Below, piece after piece: positions 11,030 through 64,000 of a stretch of 64,000 nt of DNA. The stretch comes from Glaucostegus cemiculus. Its lineage: Eukaryota. The notes beneath the pieces were generated by a model. The model did not search any database. It saw only the letters and a list, made by a program, of their open reading frames with translations, and was not told where the DNA came from. The DNA is taken from NCBI GenBank assembly GCA_976551045.1, contig CDPCPM010000007.1:16802001-16866000 (forward strand), in the 5' to 3' direction. The position numbers and the translations under genes were made by a program. Numbering within the stretch: the stretch's first letter is position 1; every line of letters starts with the position of its first letter.

Positions 11030-14000
11030 CAGATTCCAGAACCTGCAGTCGCGTGTGCTGTCAGAATACCTGCTTAAAGGGGTTTAAAAACCCTTTTGCT
11101 GCATGAGCTAATCTTTCAAAATGTTATTTTGAAATGAGCAAATATTGAATTTTGTTTTCAGTATCAGACAATGTCAAAGTATTTACTTAAAGAAAGCTAT
11201 AGCTTTACACAAACTCTCGCCCCTGTGGGCACAGATGCTTTTCTTCTGTATATTTACAACCAAGTTGAAAGTCAACACTATGAATTTAATATGGAGTAAC
11301 TGTTTTTCTTGAGTAACCATAAATTATTTTAGTTTCTTCACAAAGGAAAGAAATCTGTAAAGTGAAGAGTAATGTACATCTGTTGAATGTATTAAAATAC
11401 TACACCTGGGTCACATACAACCTAGAATGAGAAATGTCTTATTCTTAGCTTTCTTCCCTCAGTTGAAGAATTATACAGACTGTTCTGGTGGCTGGGATCA
11501 CTGACCTCTGCACAATAGGCCATTCCTCTGGACTTCCTCTGCTGTATGAAACTGAATAGTTCAGAAACACATACTATGTTCAAAGGAACTGGTGTAATGA
11601 AACATTACCTATAGACAAATATTTGTCTTTGGTAGTCACAGATTCCAACAATATAACTCTCCAATTTAATAAATAGGTGTTCTGTTACATTGTATGCTGA
11701 TTTAAACTACTTAATGTGTCAATGTTTGGATAATATCATTGAAGGAATATTACAAACAATTGACATTATATTCTCAGTGTGAATTTAAACATCAATTGCA
11801 TAGAAAGTAGTAAGGAGGCCTGAGGTTTACAGCATACTCAAAGTACACTTGTGCTAAGAATGCATGAAGACAGGGCCAGTTGTGGACCAAACTCAGTACA
11901 CCACAAAGAAGCACCTCTGTAATATAACCAGCACTATGAGGGAAGGTGCCTTAAAGAACTTGTTTTAAAATTCCTATCCTCTATTTATTTCCTAACCTTG
12001 ACTCCAATGCTTCTGCAATACACTAGGTAGCCAGCAAAATGATGCTGAGTGCTGATGCCCCATATTGCAGCTGGTGCTCTCAGTGACACATATCTAGAAG
12101 TGTCCCAAATTATGCTGCTTACTCACTTGGGCAAGGTCAGCTCCTTTAGAAGGCACACCAAACTCTGTGGCACTATGCTCAGTTTGCAGTATTGACCTCC
12201 GTGTCGTTGAAATACCTCTCCTTCAGCCACCCTGATATTCTTTTCCTTTTCATTACTTTTATTTGGTCAATTTTAATTGAAAATGGCCCCAAGCACGCCA
12301 GGCAGATATGACTGCCTGTTGAGAGATCTTCTGGTCATTACCTCCCTCTTTCAGCAGCTTGTCCTGCCCTGTGTGTCCTCTGTACATTCTCCCAGTCATG
12401 CTGCTCTCCAGGGTAATATCCTCCAATGCACCTATTTCTAGCAATGACTGTTTTAGGCAGCAGGCATAAAATAATCAAAAAGTGCCTTGCCATATTTCAC
12501 ACGATTCCCTGAAGACTTTAGTAACTTTAGGAGATCTCTAGAAAGCATCATACTCTTGGAAAATTACAGCAACTGGTAGTAAAGATCAATCAGCAAATGC
12601 CTGGTAGCAGGAGCATGGAGAGATGGCCCTTCCTGCTGTTTGTAGCACCTTTGGCTGTTGAGCTCCAAAATGTCAGTCAGTGCTGGCATCAAAATTAGCA
12701 TAGCATGCTAACTGATATGAAGACTTGCCTCCTTTGCTTATTTCTGGTGGCTTAGCTGAACATATGCCAATTCCATCAGCAACATAGTGTCTGCAAGACT
12801 TACACAACAAATGTGTGGAGGCTATTTTGGAACTGATGCAACATTCTTACTGCCTAAAATGTGGATGTAATGGAGTTGCAGTCTGTGGTCAGAAAGAAAG
12901 TAAAATGGTAGTTCATCCCTGACTGACAAGACCACTAATAAGTTATGAAATTGATCCAATAGGGGATAGAAATCTATGCAATAATAACTTTGACAGAAGA
13001 GGTTTGTTAAAATGTTCCAGCAGAAAGAGAATCCACTCTGTAAAAATGTAGGAAAGCTAAGCAAGTACAGAGAAGTTGTACTTAAATCAACCAAATGCCA
13101 GCTAAAAAAAGACAAGTGAGTTACAGCTAAGAGTTGACTAATAGGTTACACCAATTGCAGTTAAGAATCATGATAGACAAGGTGGTGAGTATATAATTGC
13201 TGGGGAGATGAATTTTAAAGTATTAGATGAGAACATAATTTGCATAAACACTTCAACAGGGGCAAACTGGAATATTTGAAAATGTGCTGTGTGTGTCCTG
13301 GAAAAGTGTATATGTAGACTGAAGAATTTGTACTAATTAAGTATGACCCCAACAACAGAGACATAAAGTAAAATGGTGTTTTGTCTCTGACTGTCAGGAC
13401 CAATAATAAGTTATGAATTTGAAGTCCTTTAAGGACTAGGAATCCATGCAACAGTAACTTTGATAAGGCATCTCTATTTCAAAGCAATCCTTTAGAGAGA
13501 AACAAATTGAAGTTTACAGGTATGAGAACAGGTGCATGCAGAAATATATTCAAAGGACAAATAGAGGAGAAATTCATAGCTGCTGGTACAATGAAATCAC
13601 AAAGATCCATAATGGGAAAGTAGCAGGTAGAATAGCAACTTGTTGAGAAGAAGAATATATTAAAGTGTTACTTCATGAAGAATGAAACAGTTATGAACCC
13701 TTGGGAGAAGCTTACTGTGCAAACTTTGAGAATCCAAGTTTTCAAATAAGACATGAGGATAGATAATAAATCTTCTGCACCCAGTGGGATTAATTTTCAT
13801 GCACATGATTAAAATAATGCAATGAGAAGAGTGGAAGAGAACACTACTTGCAACTGCAACAATTTCTGATGATGCGCTGGACACTCAGGAGAACCAAGGA
13901 GGTTTCCGTAGCAGTAAAATCAGAGGTAGGACCTCAAAGAGTATGGGTGTCATCTACAGTGATTGCAAAAGCTGAACAGGAGTAAAATGCCAATCTCTCC

Positions 14001-26574: not shown

Positions 26575-28835
26575 TCACAGAGCACAGAAACAGACCTTCT
26601 ACCCACCACATCCAGGGTGACCATCAATTACTAATCTGCTCTAATCCCATTTACCAGCACTTGGTCTTTAGTCTTCAATGGCTCAGCAATTCAAGTGCTT
26701 GTCTCAATATTTAAATATTGAAGTCTACCTGCCTCCACCACCCACTCAGGCAATGCATTCTAGACTACAAAAAACTGCTGGCTGAAAGTGTACTTCCTCA
26801 GATCCCCTTTAAACCAAAGCCATGTCCTCTAGATTTTGACAACTGTGTTCTGGGGGAAAAAGTTTCTTACTATCTACCCTGTTTATGCCCTTCATGATTT
26901 TGCAACCTCTATCAGATACACCCCTCAGCCTCCTCCACTCCAAGGAAAACAAACCTAGTCCGTCATTACTGAAACACTTCTCCCCAGGTAACGTCCTCTG
27001 TACCCCAGGTGCTTCTTATACTGTGGTGACCAGAACTGTACACAGTACTCCAGCTGTGGTCTATCCAACATTTCATAAACCTGTACCATAGCCTCACTGT
27101 TCTTATATACAATTCCTGGACAAATGAAGGCTTTTACCCTGTAGGCTTTCTTCACCTTATCCATTTGTGGTGTCCCCTTCAAAGTCCCTCCGCTCCTCAA
27201 TGCTTCCTTGGGTCCAACTGTTCAGTGCTTATGTCCTCTTATTTGTCCTCCCATTAGTCCTCCTAAAGTGAGCCATCTTTCATTTATCAAGATCAAATTC
27301 CATCTCTCATTGTTCTGTCCATTTTACCAACTGATAGGTATCTTCTTGCAACCCAAGATGATGCTCTTCACTGTTATCAACACCAATTACCATAGAACAG
27401 TACAGCACAATACAAGCCCTTCGGCCCACCATATTGTGCCAATCTTTAAACCACTCCTAAGACTATCTAACCCCTTCCTCCCACATAACCCCCTATCTTA
27501 AAATCCTGTAGATGCTTATCTAACAATCTCTTGAATTTGACCAATGTACCTGCCTCCACCACTACCCCAGGCAGTGCATTCCATGCACCAATCACTCTCT
27601 GGGTAAAAAGCATCCCTCTGATGTCTCCCTTGAACTTTCCACCCATTACTTTAAAGCTATGCCCTCTTGTATTGAGCATTGGTGCCCCGGGAAGGAGGCG
27701 CTGGCTGTTCTACTTCATCTATTCCTCTTAATATTCTATATACCTCTATCACGTCTCCCCCCTATCCTCCTCCTCTCCAAAGAGTAAAGCCCTAGCTCCC
27801 TTAGTCTCTCCTCATAATGCATACTCTAAGCTAGGCAGCATCCTGGTAAATCTCCTCTGTACCCTTTCCAACACTTTCACGTCCTTCCTATAATGAGGCA
27901 ACCAGAACTGAACACAGTACTCTAGTAGACACAGTGTGGTCTAACCAGAGGTTTGTAGAGCTGCATCATTACCTCGCGGCTCTTAAACTCAATCCCACGA
28001 TTTATGAAAGCTAACACCCCATAAGCTTTCTTAACTATCCTATCCACCTGTGAGGCAAATTTCAGTGATTTGTGGAAATGAACCCCTAGATCCCTCTGCT
28101 CCTCCACACTACCCAGAATCCTGCCATTAACTTTGTGCTCTACCTTGGAGATTGTCCTTCCAAAGTGTACCACCTCACACTTCTCTGGATTGAACTCCAT
28201 CTGCTACTTCTCAGCCCAGTCCTGCATCCTTTCAATATCCCTCTGCAATCTTCAATAGTCCGCCACACTATGCACAACATCACCGACCTTTGTGTTGTCT
28301 GCAAACTTGCTAACCCACCCTTCTGCCCCTGATCCAAGTCATTAATAAATATTACAAAAAGTAGAGGTCCCAGAACCGATCCTTGTGGAACACCACTAGT
28401 CACAGCCCTCCAATCTGAATTCACTTCCTCCACCACAACCCTCTGCTTTCTACAGGAAAGCCAATTCTGAATCCACACAGCCAAACCTCCCTGGATCCCA
28501 TGCCCTTGGACCTTCTGAGGCCTACCATGTGGAACCTTGTTAAACGCCTTACTAAAATCCATGTATACCACGTCTACTGCACTGCCCTCATCAATCTGCC
28601 CTGCCCTCATCAATCTGCCTGGTCACCTCCTCAAAAAATCCTATCAGGCTTGTGAGACATGATCTTCCCTTCACAAAGCCATTCTAGCTGTCCCTAATCA
28701 GTCTATGATTCTCTAAATGCTCATAGATCCTCTCTCTCAGAATCCTAATTACCATCTGCATCATCTGTAAATTTACTAATCATACCTCCTACATTCCTAT
28801 CCAAATTGTTAATATATATGACAAATAAGGGCAAC
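26575..28835 (-). mobile_element. Older CR1 LINE split by nested insertion (pieces ~26575-27390 and ~28750-28835)
   Basis: [17 protein letters not shown] fragment; FADD-region sequence resumes after 28755. Confidence 0.8.
27394..28746 (-). mobile_element. CR1 LINE (frameshifted RT, apparently same family as 44345-45780) nested in an older CR1
   Basis: ORF fragments [39 protein letters not shown]; similar 3' UTR; flanked by AATTACCAT direct repeat. Confidence 0.9.
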
Positions 28836-44344: not shown

Positions 44345-45780
44345 ACATAGAACAATACAATACAGCACAGAACAGGCCCTTCGGCCCATCAAGCTGTGCC
44401 ATCCTACAAACAACTCCCAAACTAACTCTTTCCACCCTCATATCCTACTATTCCACATTCTTCCATGTGCTTATCTAACAATCTCTTAAAACTGTCCAAC
44501 GTATCTGCCTCCACTACCACCCCAGGCAGTGCATTGCATGCACCAACCACTCTCTGGGTGAAAAACTTCCCTCTGACATCTCCCCTATACTTTCCACCAA
44601 TTATCTTAAAGGCATGCCCTCTCGTCTTGAGCATCTGCGCTCTGGGAAAGAGGCGCTGACTATTAACTCTATCTATTCCTCTCAATATCTTATACACCTC
44701 TATCAAGTCCCCTCTCATCCTCCTCCTCTCTAATGAGTAGAGCCCTAGCACCTTCAGCCTCCCTCTATATTCCATACCCTCCAATCCAGGAATCATCCTG
44801 GTAAATCGCCTCTGCACCCTCTCCAACGCCTCCACATCCTTCCTACAATGCGGCGACCAGAACTGAACACAATATTCCAAGTGCGGCCTAACTAGAGTTT
44901 TGTAAAGCAGCATCATCACCTCTCTGCTCTTGAACTCAATCCCTTTATTTATAAAAGCCAACATCCCATAAGCCTTCTTAACAGCCCTATCCACCTGCGA
45001 GGCAACTTTCAGTGAACTGTGGATATGAACCCCCAGATCCCTCTGCTCCTCTACACTGCCAAGTACCTTGCCATTTACCTTATACTCTGTCCTGGAGTTT
45101 GTCCTCCCAAAGTGTACCACCTCACACTTCTCCGGATTAAACTCCATCTGCCACCTGTCAGCCCAGCTCTGCATCCTATCAATATCCCCCTGTAAGCTCC
45201 TACAGTCCTCCACACTATCTACCACACCACCGATCTTGGTGTCATCTGCAAATTTACCAACCCATCCCTCCACTCCTTCATCTAAATCATCTATGAATAT
45301 AACAAAGAGTAGAGGCCCCAGAACCGATCCCTGCGGGACTCCACTAGTCACAGCCCTCCAATCCGAGGGCACTCCCTCCACCATAACCCTCTGCCTTCTA
45401 CAGGAAAGCCAATTTCTTATCCACACAGCCAACCTCCCCTGGATACCTCGACCCCTGATCTTCTGAAGAAGCCTGCCATGAGGAACCTTATCGAACGCCT
45501 TACTAAAATCCATATACACTACATCCACCGCCCTGCCCTCATCAAGCTTCCTCGTCACCTCCTCAAAGAACTCTATCAGGCTCGTGAGGCAAGATCTTCC
45601 CTTCACAAAGCCATGCTGACTGTCCCTAATCAGTTCATGACTCTCCAAGTGCTCATAGATCCTATCCCTCAAAATCCTTTCCAACAGCTTACCTACCACA
45701 GACGTGAGACTCACCGGTCTGTAATTTCCCGGACTATCTCTACTGCCCTTCTTAAACAAGGGAACAACATCCGCTACCCG
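44345..45780 (-). mobile_element. Young 5'-truncated CR1 LINE with intact RT ORF (stop at 44422)
   Basis: [66 protein letters not shown]; CR1 3' UTR at 44345-44420. Confidence 0.95.
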
Positions 45781-46174
45781 CGGGGGGGGGGTTGGGAAAA
45801 TGGGGAAAGAAGCAGTGGCTCCAACCAAGGGGATAATGTCGACATAGCACCAACTGATATACTGAGTACAGTCATCCAGTGCTTGGCTGCACTGAATGGA
45901 CCTTTATCCCCCGAAAAGTCATGGGGAAAACATGATGTACTAGCTCAATGTGGAGATTGGAAAGAGAGTGCACTTAAAATTAAAGCTATTTGCTTTATTA
46001 CAGTTATGTAATTATTGTAAACATAAAATAGCACCACCCTCTTCATATTTTGTTGAAAGGAACAGAAATTTGAATAGATTTGAATATGGATTTTCCAAAG
46101 ACAATTAGTTCCCACTTCATTTTTCACAAAACAAAAATAATAAATAAAAATTCATGCATCAAGTCCACCCATAC

Positions 46175-53595: not shown

Positions 53596-53653
53596 CTGTA
53601 TTCACAGTATCCATACATTCTTCCTTGTCATCTTGTGGAGAATTCTCAAATTC
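53596..53653 (-). CDS. CHD7: CHD7 coding exon (exon 28 equivalent, 58 bp)
   Basis: EFENSPQDDKEECMDTVNT; acceptor ttttttgcag, donor gtgagg; phases fit both neighbours. Confidence 0.9.
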
Positions 53654-53861: not shown

Positions 53862-53934
53862 ATCCATTTCATCTTTGAATGGAATTCTGCCTGGTTTATA
53901 TTCTGGATCTTCCTCCTCTCTGTCAAAATCAACA
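53862..53934 (-). CDS. CHD7: CHD7 coding exon (exon 27 equivalent, 73 bp)
   Basis: VDFDREEEDPEYKPGRIPFKDEMD; acceptor ttctttcag, donor gtgagt. Confidence 0.94.
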
Positions 53935-54061
53935 CTGAAAGAACAGTTTTTATTAAAAGTCATAGCCTTGATGCTGCTGCTTATTGAATGTTGGACTGGG
54001 TGAGTTTGGGGAGGGGGGGTGGGGGTGCTGGATTGTAAAGGGTCTCAAAAGCACAACTTAC

Positions 54062-54191
54062 CCATCACTAACATCTGCCAGCACATCTGTTCCCCTCTGT
54101 TCAGCAGCCATGGCCTTTGCGTCAGGCATTCCTACCCGCTCCAGGAAACAGAATAAAGGATCTGCCCTTATAGAATTGTATTTTTCATAGC
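54062..54191 (-). CDS. CHD7: CHD7 coding exon (exon 26 equivalent, 130 bp)
   Basis: [44 protein letters not shown]; acceptor ctttacgtag, donor gtaagt. Confidence 0.95.
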
Positions 54192-55559: not shown

Positions 55560-56475
55560 AAAGATTGCCCATCTTAATCTAATAGCTTTGACATTTAGTA
55601 AGTATCTGATATTCACCATAGTGTGTGAAATCTTCAACATGCATTTGGTGATCACAGCATATCTGCCTCTCCACTCTATACAGCATTTTGAAGAGACCAT
55701 TCCTTTCAGAACACACCATTTCACTCCTCCAACACTAATATCCCCAGATACTTCCCTGTGCAGCCACATGCTTCCTCCTTTCAAGGGTCCAAAACACTTT
55801 TTGATCAAACAACAATTTACCTGTAGTTCTTTTAACATAGCATATCATCGATCACGTTCATGATGCTGTGTCCTCTACAATGGACAACATAAACAGCCTT
55901 GCTAAACAACTTCATTCAGTCCACAAATTTGTGTGTGTGGAGTTCTGAGAGACCCTCTCCCACTGCTCTACCTCTGTGGTTTCTACTGGTCCTTTTCATC
56001 TTTGAATGGAATTCTGCCTGGTTTATATTCTGGATCTTCCCCCTCTCTGTCAAAATCAACACTGAAAGAACAGTTTTTATTAAAAGTCATAGCCTTGACG
56101 CTGCTGCTTATTGAATGTTGGACTGGGCGAGTTGGGGGGGGGGGGGGGGTGGGTGGGGGTGCTGGATCGTAAAGGGTTTCAAAAGCACAACTTACCCATC
56201 ACTAACATTTCAACCCAAAATTTCAACAATTCTTCCCACCCTGCCCCCAGATGCTCCTTGACTCAGAGGTTTTTCCTGATTTTCAGGTCACCTGCCACTT
56301 GGTTGTCTCACCTTTCATCGTATCCATTCCACTCACATCACCCTCTCTGCAACTGGAAACCAATCTCAACCTGAAATTAGCCCCCTTTGGGGCTTCAACA
56401 TGGAACTAGCCCCCTTCATCTTTCCATGGATCCTGACTGACCTGCTTAGTAATTCCAGCATTTTGTTTTATTCTG
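55560..56475 (+). mobile_element. Decayed Penelope-like 3' fragment interrupted by the CHD7 exon duplicate
   Basis: FKGPKHFLIKQQFTCSSFNIAY (GIY-YIG N-terminal motif); terminal motif gactgacctgcttagtaattccagca ~56435-56460. Confidence 0.7.
55994..56208 (-). pseudogene. Intronic duplicate of CHD7 exon 26 3' end + intron 26 + most of exon 27
   Basis: Near-identical, same-orientation copy of 53867-54074 (5 substitutions plus an altered G-tract). Confidence 0.95.
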
Positions 56476-56794
56476 CAATTATCTTTTTCATTTTAAATTT
56501 GCAACTTTGTCCATACATCAAGATGAATTACACCTACAGAACAAATGAATAATTTTTCATCTGATTATCTACCTTACAACCCTCCCCCACCCCAACTATG
56601 ATATCCAAGCTATTTCAACATGGTGTTTCAAACCCCAAAGCCTTGCTTTTTCATCCCAACATCCACAATAGGCATATCTTTCTGTGGTAGTCGCTGGACG
56701 TCATTCTGCAAGGGTGAAACTAGCTTGCATTTTTTCCATATTGCCAAAGACCATGCTCTCTCATGAAAATTTGGTAAAAATCAGTTAACTTGCA

Positions 56795-58350
56795 GTTAAG
56801 CTGTGCGGACCAGCTTAAAGATGTACTGGCTGACATCTTCAACATCTCCCTACAGCAGGCTGTTGTTCCTAAGTGCCTAAAATCTGCCACCATCATACCT
56901 GTTCCCAAGAAGCCTCCTCCAAAGTGTCTGAATGACTACCGTCCTATAGCCCTAACACCGATTGTCATGAAATGCTTTGAGAGGCTAGTTATGAAGCACA
57001 TTAGAGCCTCCCTCCCCCCATCCTTGGATCCTCATCAGTATGCTTATCGGGCAAACAGGTCAACCGATGATGCAGTCTCCTCTGCCATGCACTCTGCACT
57101 ACATCACTTAGAGAAGAAGGACTCATACTGCCGGCTGCTATTCATTGACTTCAGCTCCGCTTTCAATACCATCATCCCACAACAACTTATCAGGAAGTTG
57201 AGCGCTCTGGGCATCAACACTCCTCTCTGCAACTGGATACTGGATTTTCTAACTGGCAGGCCGCAGTCAGTCAAAATTGGTGAAAACATCTCAAGCACCA
57301 TCACACTGAGCACTGGCTCCCCTCAGGGTTGTGTGCTCAGTCCGCTCCTGTTCACCTTGTTGACCCACGACTGTGAGGCCAGATTCAGCTCCAACCGCAT
57401 TGTTAAATTTGCCGATGACACGACAGTGGTGGGTCTTGTTACGAATGACGATGAGTCGGACTATAGAGAGGAGGTGAACCAACTAGCCGTGTGGTGCCAT
57501 GACAACAACCTCTCCTTGAATGTGGATAAAACCAAGGAGATGATAGTGGATTTTAGGAGGGGTCATCGTGTGCACGCTCCGCTGACCATCAACGGGTCTG
57601 CTGTGGAACAAGTACGCAGCACCAAGTTCCTGGGGGTGCACATCACCGACGACCTGACCTGGTCCACTAATATTACGGCCCTCACGAAGAAGGCTCAGAA
57701 ACGCCTCTACTTCCTGCGGAGACTGAGGAAAGCGTACCCACACCCCACAGTCGTGAAATCCTTCTACAGGGGGACCATTGAGAGCATCCTAACTCAATGT
57801 ATCTCTGTTTGGTTTGGAAGCTGCTCAGCTGCTGGGCGGAAGTCCCTTCAGAAGATAGTTAAGGCTGCGGAGTGGATCATAGGTGTCTTGCTTCCATCCC
57901 TCGCAGACATATACAAAGACCGTTGTGTGAGGAAGACCAAAAGCATAATGGACGACCCCTCTCACCCCTCCCACCACCTCTTCACAATTTTGCCATCAGG
58001 GAGGAGGCTTAAATGTATCAGGGCAAGAACGTCCAGGCTGAACAATAGCTTCTTTCCGCAAGCCATAAGAACTGCAAACTCTCTCATCCCTCCATCTTCC
58101 CTTGTTAACACTAGGAGATGCTAGGTGCACAGAAATGCACCAGCACTTTAAATGCCCGACACCAGCCTGTTCACTTTAAGATCTATTTATGTAAGAACTA
58201 ATGGGTAATGTTTTGTACTGTGTATGTGTCTCTCTGTTGGTTGTTATGTTATTCTTTTCTATGAGACGTGTTCCTGTGGAGGACGGTATCTCGCTCCTAT
58301 GCGTACCATGTATGTATATGGTTGTGACAATAAAGCTGATTCTGATTCTG
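56795..58350 (+). mobile_element. Young 5'-truncated Rex1/Babar-type LINE with uninterrupted RT ORF (56790-58124)
   Basis: [60 protein letters not shown]; 3' end AATAAA followed by GATTCT repeats (~58329-58350). Confidence 0.9.
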
Positions 58351-58467: not shown

Positions 58468-58571
58468 CATGCTTAAATACTCCAATAAGAAGGCATTTAT
58501 CAGCCTCCCGATCCCACCAATCTGTAGGAAGTTCACCATGATCGATTTCTGGGATCCAGATATCTACATCA
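58468..58571 (-). CDS. CHD7: CHD7 coding exon (human exon 25 equivalent, 104 bp); first exon in window, gene continues beyond 64000
   Basis: Manual translation [34 protein letters not shown](G); acceptor tttgtttag, donor gtatgt; phase 2 in, phase 1 out. Not in ORF track. Confidence 0.93.
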
Positions 58572-60244: not shown

Positions 60245-62460
60245 AAATAAAAGTGGCAGATGTTAGAAATCTTAAAAAAAATGAAAACACTGTAAACATT
60301 CAGCTGATCTGGTAGCATCTGTGGAAAGAGAAACAATATTTCAGGTCAAAAACCCTTCATCAGAACTGGAAAAAAGAAAACTAGTTTTATATCGCAGAGA
60401 AGGTGAGACAGGGATGGAGAGGATAAAGGGAATATTTCTGATAAACCAGATCTAGGTATGCCATAAGGTTAAGTTGTAGAGGTTTTCCAATTATGGGGTT
60501 AATGTGAACAGTTAGTGGGGGTGGGGGGAGAACAAAAGCGGAGAAGAGGGCGGTGAGGTGAGATTACAAAGGAGACAAGAGAAAGTCCTGATGCAGTGCA
60601 GTGACCTGAAACATCAACAATTCCTCCCTGCCACCCCCCACAGATGCTGTTCGACCCGCTGAGTTCTCCCAGCGGGTTTGATCTTTTTTGACAAACGAAT
60701 GTAACAAGGTGCTAAATGCAGCCCAAAGGTCAGGCTGAGCTAATGGAGTAAAACTGAACCAATATCACAGATGGGTAATTTACTACAAAAATGGCCAGTT
60801 CTGATACAGTCAGAAAAAGCGCATTACCTAAAGTCAAAGAATTTGACATGGGGTCCAGAAAGCTGCAAAGTGCTCAGGTACATAAGGTGTTGTTCTTCAA
60901 GCTTACGTTGAGCATCAGGAAGCCACAGATAGGTCAAAGTGAAAGTGGGATGGTCAATTAAACTGGCAAGCAACAGGGAGCTTGGAGTTGTCCCTGCAGG
61001 CACCCTGGAAAGCAGTCTTTTGTGTTTGGTTTTGTCAATGTATGGGAGACTAGACTGCTAATGATGAATGCATACATAGATTCGGAGAAATGCAAGTAAA
61101 TTACTGCTTCACTTGGAATGATTGTGCAGATCTATGGATGGTGGGAAGGGAAGAGGTAAAAAGGACAGGTGTGTCATCATCTGAAGTTGCATGGGAATTT
61201 CAAGAGGTGAGAGTCTGGTGGGGATGAAGAGAGGACCAGGATTCAGACTGTCCTCTTCAAAATGCTGAAAGGGAGGAAAAGATGTATGGGTGGTAGAATC
61301 TTGCTGAATCTGGTGGAAATTGTCAAGGATGATCTGTTGATTGTGGAGGCTGATAAAAAGTGTTGAGGGGTGAGGGAGTGAGAGCAGAAGTGTGTGCAAA
61401 AGATGAGATGTGGTTAAGGGCTCTCAAGTATGGTAGAGGGAAAGTCATGATTTAGAAAGACATATTTCAGAGGCATCTCTGTGGGAGGTCTGATCATCAA
61501 AGCAAATATGATGGAGGGACTTAAACTGGGAGAATGGAATGGAGTCCTCAGAGGAGGCAGAGTGGGAGAAAGTATTGATAACTCTCCTACATTTCCCCAA
61601 GAGGGAGAAATCCGGAAAGGGAAGGAAAAAGTCAAAGATGGACCACATGAAGGTAGAAAATGGCAACTAAAGCAATGAACTTTTTTTTTTAAATTTCAGA
61701 TGGCGCAGGAAGCAGCACCAATGCAGTCAGCTGATGTACCTGAAAAAAAGTTGAGGGAATGGGCCAAGCAGGACTGAAATAAAAACTACCCCACAAGAAG
61801 AGGGACATATATTGGGCCCAAACAAATTTCCACAGTTTTTGTATATCTTTGATTTGAGTGATGTTCAAGGAGAAGTTGGGCAATGCGAGGATGAGTTCAG
61901 CGGATGAATGAGTCAATGAAAGGGAAATGGTTGGGCCTCCGTTCAAGGAAGTGGAGGGCTCTCAGACTATCCTCATGTGGAATAGAGGTTTAGAGGTAGT
62001 GTCCTTGCCATGTGCATACAAGGAAACCAGAAGTAGTCAGAATGTGGAGGGCATCAGAGGGGCATGGATGTAGGTTGGAAGGGACAAAGCCAGGAGAGAA
62101 AGGGTGGAGTTAAATAGGAAGAAATCAATTTGGTAGGGCAGAGCAGGCAGAAACAATAATTGCGCCCAGATAGTTCTGCTTGTGGATTTTTGACAAAAGA
62201 CAGTGAACTGTGCTGGCTGGAGGACTATAAGCCTGGAAGCTGCAGAGAGTAGACCTCCCAAAGAAATGAGATCTCCAAGAGCCTGAGAGACAATGGCCTG
62301 ACTTTTGGTTGTGGGGCCATGGTCCAGAGGGAGGTACGAGGACAATTTTGAGAGCTGATGCTTGGCCTCTTTGAAGTAGAAGACAGTCTGCCAGACAACA
62401 GCACCAATCTTGTTGACAGGCTGGCAACCCGGTGTTCTTGGTCCATTCTTCCATCCTCCA
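60245..62460 (-). mobile_element. Decayed Penelope-like element
   Basis: LLSKIHKQNYLGAIIVSACS (LPKIHK..GRPIVS motif), FRYIDDCIGAAS-like DNA at ~61710-61745, GIY-YIG relic ~61020-61120, terminal CTGATGA..GAAA motif ~60339-60363. Confidence 0.8.
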
Positions 62461-64000
62461 CCAACCATTCCCCTGCTTTCAATTTACTGTCCTGCATTTG
62501 GTGTTCACAATATGGTCTCCTCTACATTGGAACAAACCACTCTGAACTGGTCACTTTTGTTGTAAATTATCCATCTGTAACATTGGCTCAATTTCTCTCT
62601 TCCATTAGCAGCTCTTCATCTCTATCAGATTACCAAAGCCCAACTCAACTCTCTTCTTTTCTGAAGTGCTTAGGATACCCCAAACTGTGAAAGATGGAAT
62701 ACAAATTCAAGTTTCAATACTTTTTTTCTATAATTCTCTGGATATCCTCTTTTTAAAATGGCAATCACATTGCAAACCTCAAATGGGCAGGCAGGCAATG
62801 AAAAGCCTAAACTATTTTTCACCCAAGCTGCAGAGTGAACCAAGCCTATTTCATTGCCAACTTGGTTCCCCATTTTTACATAGATCTGGAAAATTAAACA
62901 TTGGATGGAATAAACAAGCATAAAGACAAAGTTAGTTCAATTCCAATAATATTGCACATTGATTTAAATTAGGTGGGGAAACTTAAAGTCAGTTGGTGAG
63001 AAGCAAATTTGCAAGATTTCAAATTTGAAAAGGATTTTATATTTGTATCTTATTGAGTACAGGGCTGCATAATGACCACTGAGAACTGCACATTATTAGA
63101 TCATCCTTGCTAAAGGACAAGATGAGCAAAGAGACATCAAAACTAAAAGGCTCTTGGTGATTTTCATATTGTGAAAAGTTGAATTTACAAATCTATGACT
63201 AAATGAGTTTTGAATTCAATCTATATCACCAATGTTGTGAAAAATTAGCAACCCTGGAAAGTACAATTTTTACTTGGGCACTGCTCTACCTGGTAACTGG
63301 TCATCGACATTCATATTTTAAGACCTGGAAGCTCTTATGTATGAACATAACCTGATTAATTTTACTGCATACGTTAAAATTATCAAACATTAAAATGGAT
63401 CTATTGCTAAGGATTAAACAAGCTTTAAAAATATTTTGGAAGATATCATCCAACAGGTTGGGTTTGCAGCAGCATTGAAGTCAGACCAACAGGAGAGGCA
63501 CTGAGCTACAGATAAGTTCAGCATCATATGCCTGCACGTTCCATTGGAGGATATGGATAGACCAGTCAAATCAGTAAACAAGCTCTGGATGCAGATTGCC
63601 CACTTACCTTCTCAAAAGAAAAAGATCAGATTTGAAAAGTGATTAAAGACAATTTTAGGCTTTAATCATTTGAAATTTCAACCGAAGCTGCTTGCTTTCT
63701 TCCCCCCACTCATTTATCTCAAAGGTGTATTGACAAGTCAGTTTAAACCTAGTTGTCTTTAGGTCTTTTTTTAAAAAAACATTGAAGTCTCTTAATCTGC
63801 ATGGTTAATAATGCAAATAATGCACTAAATTCATCAAATTGATTGCACTGAAGTAAACTTTGCAGGATTGTTAATTTTGCCATTTAAAAAAAAACTTAAA
63901 GTACTCTAAGACAGCCATTATGTCAATTACCAACAATCCTTATTTGTTGAAAACTTCAGGCCAGAAAGGGTATCAGATACAAATTCAAATAATTCAACTA

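Follow-up and report, generated by a model that had tools for sequence, protein, structure and literature searches.

A 215-nt copy of CHD7 intron 26 within a Penelope-like relic of intron 25 in Glaucostegus cemiculus: a probable, and likely neutral, scar of break repair

Intron 25 of CHD7 in Glaucostegus cemiculus holds, inside the remains of an old repeat, a second copy of the gene's own intron 26 with both of its splice sites. How such a segment came to lie there, and whether splicing takes any notice of it, are the questions we address here for a window of 64,000 nt (assembly GCA_976551045.1, contig CDPCPM010000007.1, positions 16,802,001 to 16,866,000 of the forward strand; coordinates below are those of the window). 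The answer that we judge probable is that the 215-nt copy replaced at most 10 nt of the relic when a double-strand break was patched from DNA 2 kb away, and that the result is a likely neutral scar that splicing ignores.

The copied segment and its source

A downstream exon identifies the gene as CHD7, with a best match to this protein of 256 bits, compared with 204 for CHD9 and 181 for CHD6. Consistent with this assignment, consecutive exons of 130, 73 and 58 nt have the sizes given for human CHD7 exons 26, 27 and 28 (PMC5790995). A PDB search with the large CHD7 exon returned no matches, and in an Atlas search the CHD-type lead scores stayed below 0.9. The source intron 26 is 127 nt long and occupies 54061-53935 on the minus strand. 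The features of the gene and the two copies are as follows.

58468..58571, minus strand: CHD7 exon 25, 104 nt
54062..54191, minus strand: CHD7 exon 26, 130 nt, the size of human exon 26
53862..53934, minus strand: CHD7 exon 27, 73 nt, the size of human exon 27
53596..53653, minus strand: CHD7 exon 28, 58 nt, placed by a loose end in RNA, its splice sites and its size
53867..54074, minus strand: donor segment within the working gene, from the pairwise match
55994..56208, minus strand: inserted copy (acceptor locus) with the end of exon 26, intron 26 and most of exon 27, from the pairwise and genome matches; absent at the orthologous site in a relative (relative C)

Two open reverse-transcriptase frames also lie in the window. 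One of 448 aa at 56778-58124 (plus strand; RVT_1, E 3e-37) is antisense within CHD7 intron 25 and looks like a young 5'-truncated LINE insertion, and another of 493 aa occupies 44422-45903 (minus strand; RVT_1, E 1e-34) and is 79% like 27397-28746.

A reading made from the sequence only had proposed that 55994-56208 is a same-orientation copy of 53867-54074, and every coordinate that we checked holds. A pairwise blastn alignment gives 93% identity (204 of 219 columns, E 3e-94) between the two segments, which share one orientation and are separated by 1,916 nt. This is the sole pair above 81% identity among the 19 self-matches listed when the window was compared with itself, and a whole-genome search with the copy, which skips very common words, found two places (two of two candidates scored). 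Read in the direction of the gene (56208-55994 against 54074-53867), the copies differ by 7 substitutions over 208 positions (3.4%) and by a 7-nt expansion of a C/G tract, which makes the intron 134 nt long in the copy and 127 nt in the source. Between 53914-54044 and 56041-56178, at four of the five differing positions outside the tract the sense strand reads A in the source but G in the copy, and CpG occurs three times in the copy and not at all in the source.

The copy comprises 13 nt of the 130-nt exon 26, the entire intron 26 and 68 of the 73 nt of exon 27. It carries a donor GT at 56195-56194 and an acceptor AG at 56063-56062, and its 9-nt donor and 23-nt acceptor windows are letter-identical to those of the native intron-26 sites; the donor of exon 27 is missing. 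These coordinates bear out the earlier description of a complete intron flanked by both splice sites and lacking the exon-27 donor, as well as the conclusion that a processed mRNA was not the template, given the retained intron and the lack of poly(A) and of a target-site duplication. We rejected a processed retrocopy or class 1 templated insertion on the same grounds, since none of its hallmarks (introns removed, poly(A), target-site duplication) was found.

The surrounding relic and the empty site in a relative

Both flanks of the copy match a widespread repeat, with 40 scored genome matches each, and at one other locus (L017) the two flank pieces follow each other colinearly, 62 nt apart. 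The pieces around the copy are listed here.

56209..56334, minus strand: upstream flank, the end piece of a genome-wide repeat, colinear with the downstream flank in L017
55939..55993, minus strand: downstream flank, a piece of about 53 nt of the same repeat family
55607..55895, plus strand: decayed piece of an old family with a GIY-YIG-like motif (Penelope-like), from DNA matches to loci L059, L056 and L061

The copy had been described as sitting inside a Penelope relic. What stands of this description is a two-step link to GIY-YIG retroelements: 55607-55895 matches L059, L056 and L061 at 64-72% (L059 at E 3e-7), and members of this old family (L057, L059 and L062) align in turn with the frames of young GIY-YIG elements in the genome, the best at E 2e-5. 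A direct domain match in the flank did not materialise. Pfam returned no domain for the copy's flank itself, and on 44 frames from repeat loci it returned two reverse-transcriptase matches and no GIY-YIG; the decayed flank frame, searched in the genome, matched itself only, and the Atlas gave no usable match for L059. The Penelope-like label therefore depends on the two-step chain, which supports it indirectly. A pattern that we take to resemble the hammerhead core occurs at three places among the repeat loci scanned, and Rfam detected no hammerhead in the window stretch or in ten repeat loci. A minimal hammerhead ribozyme in the terminal repeat is a described feature of Penelope-like elements (PMC6155905).

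Other members of these families were seen along the way. The young GIY-YIG retroelements (L044-L053 and others) form a family of many copies, distinct from the old one around the CHD7 copy, which is possibly still active since several copies are in open frames of 740 aa. In intron 24, a further decayed piece of the old Penelope-like family lies at 60824-61057 (minus strand), and a putative one at 62352-62690 (plus strand) was recognised by motif resemblance, with no Pfam match. At L029:1481-1611 the two ends of the flank repeat are joined head to head as a fold-back hairpin, which accounts for spurious microRNA-family scores, all below the cut-off.

The state of the site before the event can be read from a relative. 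We used sequencing reads of relatives, the best of which share 0.25 of the window's words. A 1,289-nt contig of relative C matches the window over 56210-56398, apart from 11 differing letters and 2 gaps, and then continues at 55994 after only 10 letters, where the window has the 215 nt. This empty site is one contig from one of three DNA runs, at a depth of 5.4 and with 25 letters on its short side; the DNA reads of relatives A and G yielded repeat copies only and no orthologous contig. We take the contig of relative C as orthologous because its 189-nt alignment is longer than the best paralogous matches of the flank in the window's own genome (at most 143 columns, at 64-90%) and because it is the only one over most of the upstream flank among the contigs listed. 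At 7 positions its 10 letters agree with the letter most frequent among 35 repeat copies. This agreement with the repeat family indicates the ancestral state, such that the copy was gained, and 8-10 nt were lost, in the window's lineage.

Against this empty site, neither a target-site duplication nor poly(A) is seen at the copy junctions, in agreement with the sequence-only reading, which had found no obvious duplication. That reading had also called for an alignment of the orthologous intron and for a measure of any deletion at the insertion point; relative C supplies both, having the relic without the copy and placing the loss at 8-10 nt. Microhomology amounts to one certain nucleotide at each junction, with 3 nt upstream if one later substitution is allowed and an imperfect 5-nt match downstream. 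Over the flanks, the window and relative C differ at 16 of 257 positions (6.2%). The lower divergence between copy and source (3.4%) points in the direction of a younger event and fits a duplication later than the split from relative C, a difference that is not significant (Fisher p 0.20).

The same site bears on two other accounts of the copy. The piece could have been captured by template jumping during the Penelope element's own insertion, in keeping with the patchwork structure of the repeat copies, whose flank pieces are 62-281 nt apart in the clearer cases and some of which fold back. However, in relative C the same relic lacks the copy and shows the letters typical of its family at that place. 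The relic must then predate the copy, and this account is largely refuted; moreover, among five other local duplicate pairs described below, none has flanks that match Penelope references. We consider it highly improbable. An assembly artefact, in which the second copy would be absent from the chromosome, is extremely improbable in our estimation. It could be argued from the lack of any contig across the copy junction in four runs of relatives' reads (three DNA and one RNA). Yet mis-assemblies usually produce near-identical, adjacent copies, whereas these differ at 7 positions and by a 7-nt indel, and the copy is set, to the exact base, into a site that relative C has uninterrupted.

Probable repair from a nearby template

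The templated repair patch that the sequence-only reading had proposed is supported by the empty site, by a deletion no larger than 10 nt and by the missing target-site duplication. In outline, a germline double-strand break would have occurred inside the old Penelope-like relic of intron 25; a broken end would have primed on the donor about 2 kb away over 1-3 nt of microhomology; and about 208 nt would have been copied before the other end was rejoined with a loss of 10 nt or less. The repair may have been SDSA-like or of the theta type, the enzyme not being readable from sequence.

Events of this description are known. Pace, Sen, Batzer and Feschotte (2009) applied the term repair-mediated duplication to an insert that breaks up a transposable element and has a single donor (PMC2671141). 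Their 824 human cases have donors within 5 kb, a mean length of 162 bp and a maximum of 619 bp, with deletions of 1-15 nt and poly(A) in none of 39 inspected (PMC2671141). The CHD7 copy agrees with this class in most respects: its 215 nt exceed the minimum of 50 bp and interrupt one transposable element, whose flanks are colinear in L017 and continuous in relative C; it matches exactly one other genomic place; its donor lies 1,916 nt away, between the bounds of 50 bp and 5 kb, and its length is below 619 bp; its junctions have no poly(A/T) tail; 8-10 nt were lost, within the range of 1-15 nt that, with filler or microhomology, marks the class; and an empty site exists in a relative, in one contig of relative C. 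One point that counts against this explanation is microhomology, reported as 2-9 nt by Pace et al., which here is one certain nucleotide per end, or 3 nt upstream with one later change. SDSA from a DNA template was deduced by Pace et al. from sequence alone, as it is here. The hosts named in the available text of that study are primates, other mammals, chicken and zebrafish, and Glaucostegus cemiculus does not appear among them. On this comparison, the copy is likely a proximal repair-mediated duplication of an ordinary, known kind.

What the patch contains is less common. Donors with exon sequence make up 8 of the 824 human cases, and some of these duplications copy exon and intron sequence into the same gene (PMC2671141). 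A whole intron with both exon ends is not in Table 2 of Pace et al., although their RD supplements could hold one. A search by title found no publication on this locus, a result from which we do not conclude that it is absent from print.

A break patched from reverse-transcribed, unspliced CHD7 pre-mRNA would leave a neutral scar too, and would place the copy with the class 2 templated sequence insertions (TSI/TSIP) of Onozawa and Aplan (2016), whose experimental patches span 73-414 nt (PMC5110952). Such insertions have microdeletions and microhomology but no target-site duplication, and RNA can be their source (PMC5110952); the CHD7 copy resembles them as a patch of about 200 nt with an intact donor, a microdeletion, microhomology, and neither a target-site duplication nor poly(A). 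The retained intron makes a pre-mRNA template possible, and four of the five substitutions outside the tract are A>G when read on the transcribed sense strand (p ~0.016, post hoc), which could point to an RNA step; in addition, the donor is transcribed, as RNA reads of relative A attest, and the genome has open reverse-transcriptase frames. Several observations weigh on the other side. At three of the four A>G sites the copy has CpG where the source has CpA, which CpG decay in the source would explain too, and just one of the four, at 56041, is polarised to the copy. The contig of relative C for the source stops at the tract, with 56099 close to its end, and the CpG-type differences are not polarised. 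The bases next to the A>G sites do not fit the preference of ADAR. Furthermore, class 2 insertions are defined by a distant template and argued to be RNA-derived (PMC5110952), whereas the donor here is only 1.9 kb away and all six local pairs found in this genome lie within 10.2 kb. We therefore favour a DNA template on account of the proximity of the donor, and regard a pre-mRNA template as unlikely. The bridges of templated insertions described in cancer genomes (PMC7025897) differ further, being somatic and typically templated on other chromosomes, while this copy is germline, local and 215 nt long.

The source also contains a tract on which the sequence-only reading had remarked.

53998..54025, plus strand: G-quadruplex-type tract in the source, with a G3-N1-7 x4 pattern; expanded in the copy at 56125-56158

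The tract does fit the G-quadruplex pattern, for which the chance in a random 215-nt segment is p ~0.04, and the motif is present in none of the five other local pairs. As a cause of the duplication we rejected it: the tract is internal to the copied segment, with about 50 and 130 nt separating it from the two ends, and so marks neither junction.

How often such copies arise was gauged by a screen for local pairs of at least 80 nt and at least 85% identity, mostly unique in the sample and at any distance, over 864 kb in three stretches of the genome. It returned six pairs, the CHD7 copy included. Three of the others were checked genome-wide and two of these occur in two copies only: a 208-nt direct pair at 91%, 4.4 kb apart, located 3-8 kb before the start of the window (L083:2079-2286 and L083:6710-6917), in whose flanks no repeat was detected, and a 109-nt inverted pair at 91%, 744 nt apart (L108:4646-4754 and L108:5498-5606). 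A 115-nt pair has one full-length partner and 30 partial genome matches. The remaining two, of 675 and 720 nt, are probably copies of mobile elements and do not enter the rate, a judgement made solely from repeat matches in their flanks. The rate is then 3-4 local duplication events per 864 kb, with the CHD7 copy counted, and copies of this sort are common in this genome. A preference of patches for Penelope relics was considered and set aside, as flanks matching Penelope references occur in none of the five other pairs, compared with 53 of 400 random windows, and the match of the CHD7 copy itself is circular. Within the window, 12891-12993 and 13359-13463 form a further same-orientation pair (105 nt, 79%, 366 nt apart) that may be an older local duplication.

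Extrapolated roughly from these three stretches, 3-4 events per 864 kb implies about ten thousand in a 2.85-Gb genome. A patch carrying a full pair of splice sites is then uncommon yet expected, since about 1 in 100 of the human cases reported by Pace et al. has exon sequence.

Predicted silence of the copied splice sites

We scored splice sites with a crude matrix built from 22 acceptors and 23 donors of CHD7, a few of them probably misplaced, with the intron-26 sites held out. The elements that could act in intron 25 are these.

56190..56198, minus strand: decoy 5' splice site, equal to the intron-26 donor; 9.9 bits, with 2 of 279 intron-25 GTs as high
56059..56081, minus strand: decoy 3' splice site, equal to the exon-27 acceptor; 2.8 bits, with 44 of 316 intron-25 AGs as high
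55821..56061, minus strand: possible 241-nt pseudo-exon from the decoy acceptor to a latent donor at 55820, predicted to cause a frameshift and an early stop if used

The decoy acceptor had been called one of native strength. Its letters are indeed those of the native site, but that site is itself weak on this matrix, at 2.8 bits compared with 10.4 for the true exon-26 acceptor and a range of 2.8-13.3 for real sites. The decoy donor is strong, in the top 2 of 279 GTs in intron 25, which counts against silence. The latent donor at 55820 in the relic scores 6.3 bits with the same crude matrix, a score reached by 17 of the 279. The pair that bounds the 241-nt pseudo-exon is one of 59 acceptor-donor pairs found in intron 25 at the same thresholds.

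RNA from relative A does not bear on use of the decoy. One raw run, of which about 18% was read and which has almost no intronic depth, gave 10 aligned reads. All 8 reads over 56041, in one mate direction, carry the source letter, loose ends match exons 26 and 28, and no read spans a junction of the copy.

The copy is probably silent in splicing. The spliceosome would pass over the copied sites because the acceptor is weak, the donor of its own exon has been lost and dozens of equally good pseudo-sites surround it. The contrary reading is that the scar is used, with the decoy acceptor, the purine-rich exon-27 piece and the donor at 55820 forming a 241-nt poison exon that lowers CHD7 through nonsense-mediated decay. 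Both sites are present at a workable spacing, the acceptor and branch region are native sequence followed by 68 nt of real exon, all five modelled inclusion routes stop early, and CHD7 is described as haploinsufficient in humans (PMC5790995). However, both sites score low (2.8 bits for the acceptor, 6.3 bits for the donor) and the intron has 59 comparable pairs, and intronic segments that have strong sites and are never spliced form a recognised class (PMC2095810). Changes in the exon part of the copy (1 of 81 nt) and in its tract also give no sign of constraint, in numbers too small for a test. We judge use of the scar to be quite unlikely; and a lineage-specific poison exon in a dosage-sensitive gene, in which the exon-27 acceptor, an enhancer-rich piece and a donor of the relic would make a 241-nt cassette that trims CHD7 by nonsense-mediated decay, very unlikely.

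The decoy had further been held worthy of attention because intron 25 of human CHD7 is a recurrent site of CHARGE splice variants. For c.5405-7G>A, a new adjacent acceptor that shifts the site by 5 nt was shown (PMC3172230), and other intron-25 variants include c.5405-17G>A (PMC7181484) and c.5405-3C>G (PMC9355507). The likeness extends to the same gene, the same intron and the involvement of an extra acceptor. The variants in these reports, however, adjoin the true exon-26 acceptor at 3-17 nt, whereas the decoy duplicates the acceptor of exon 27, lies 1,870 nt upstream and would need a donor of its own; if it acted at all, it would do so by exon definition, a different route. The argument from the hotspot is not supported, and we regard the CHARGE link as weak.

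As a neutral scar, the copy matters little by itself: it is one more repair-mediated duplication, a clean one with an empty site. It serves, too, as a presence/absence marker among close relatives, and it offers a small natural test of exon definition, in which the same acceptor letters stand in two contexts of one pre-mRNA. Should the pseudo-exon prove to be used, it would be a case of break repair creating a regulatory exon in a dosage-sensitive gene.
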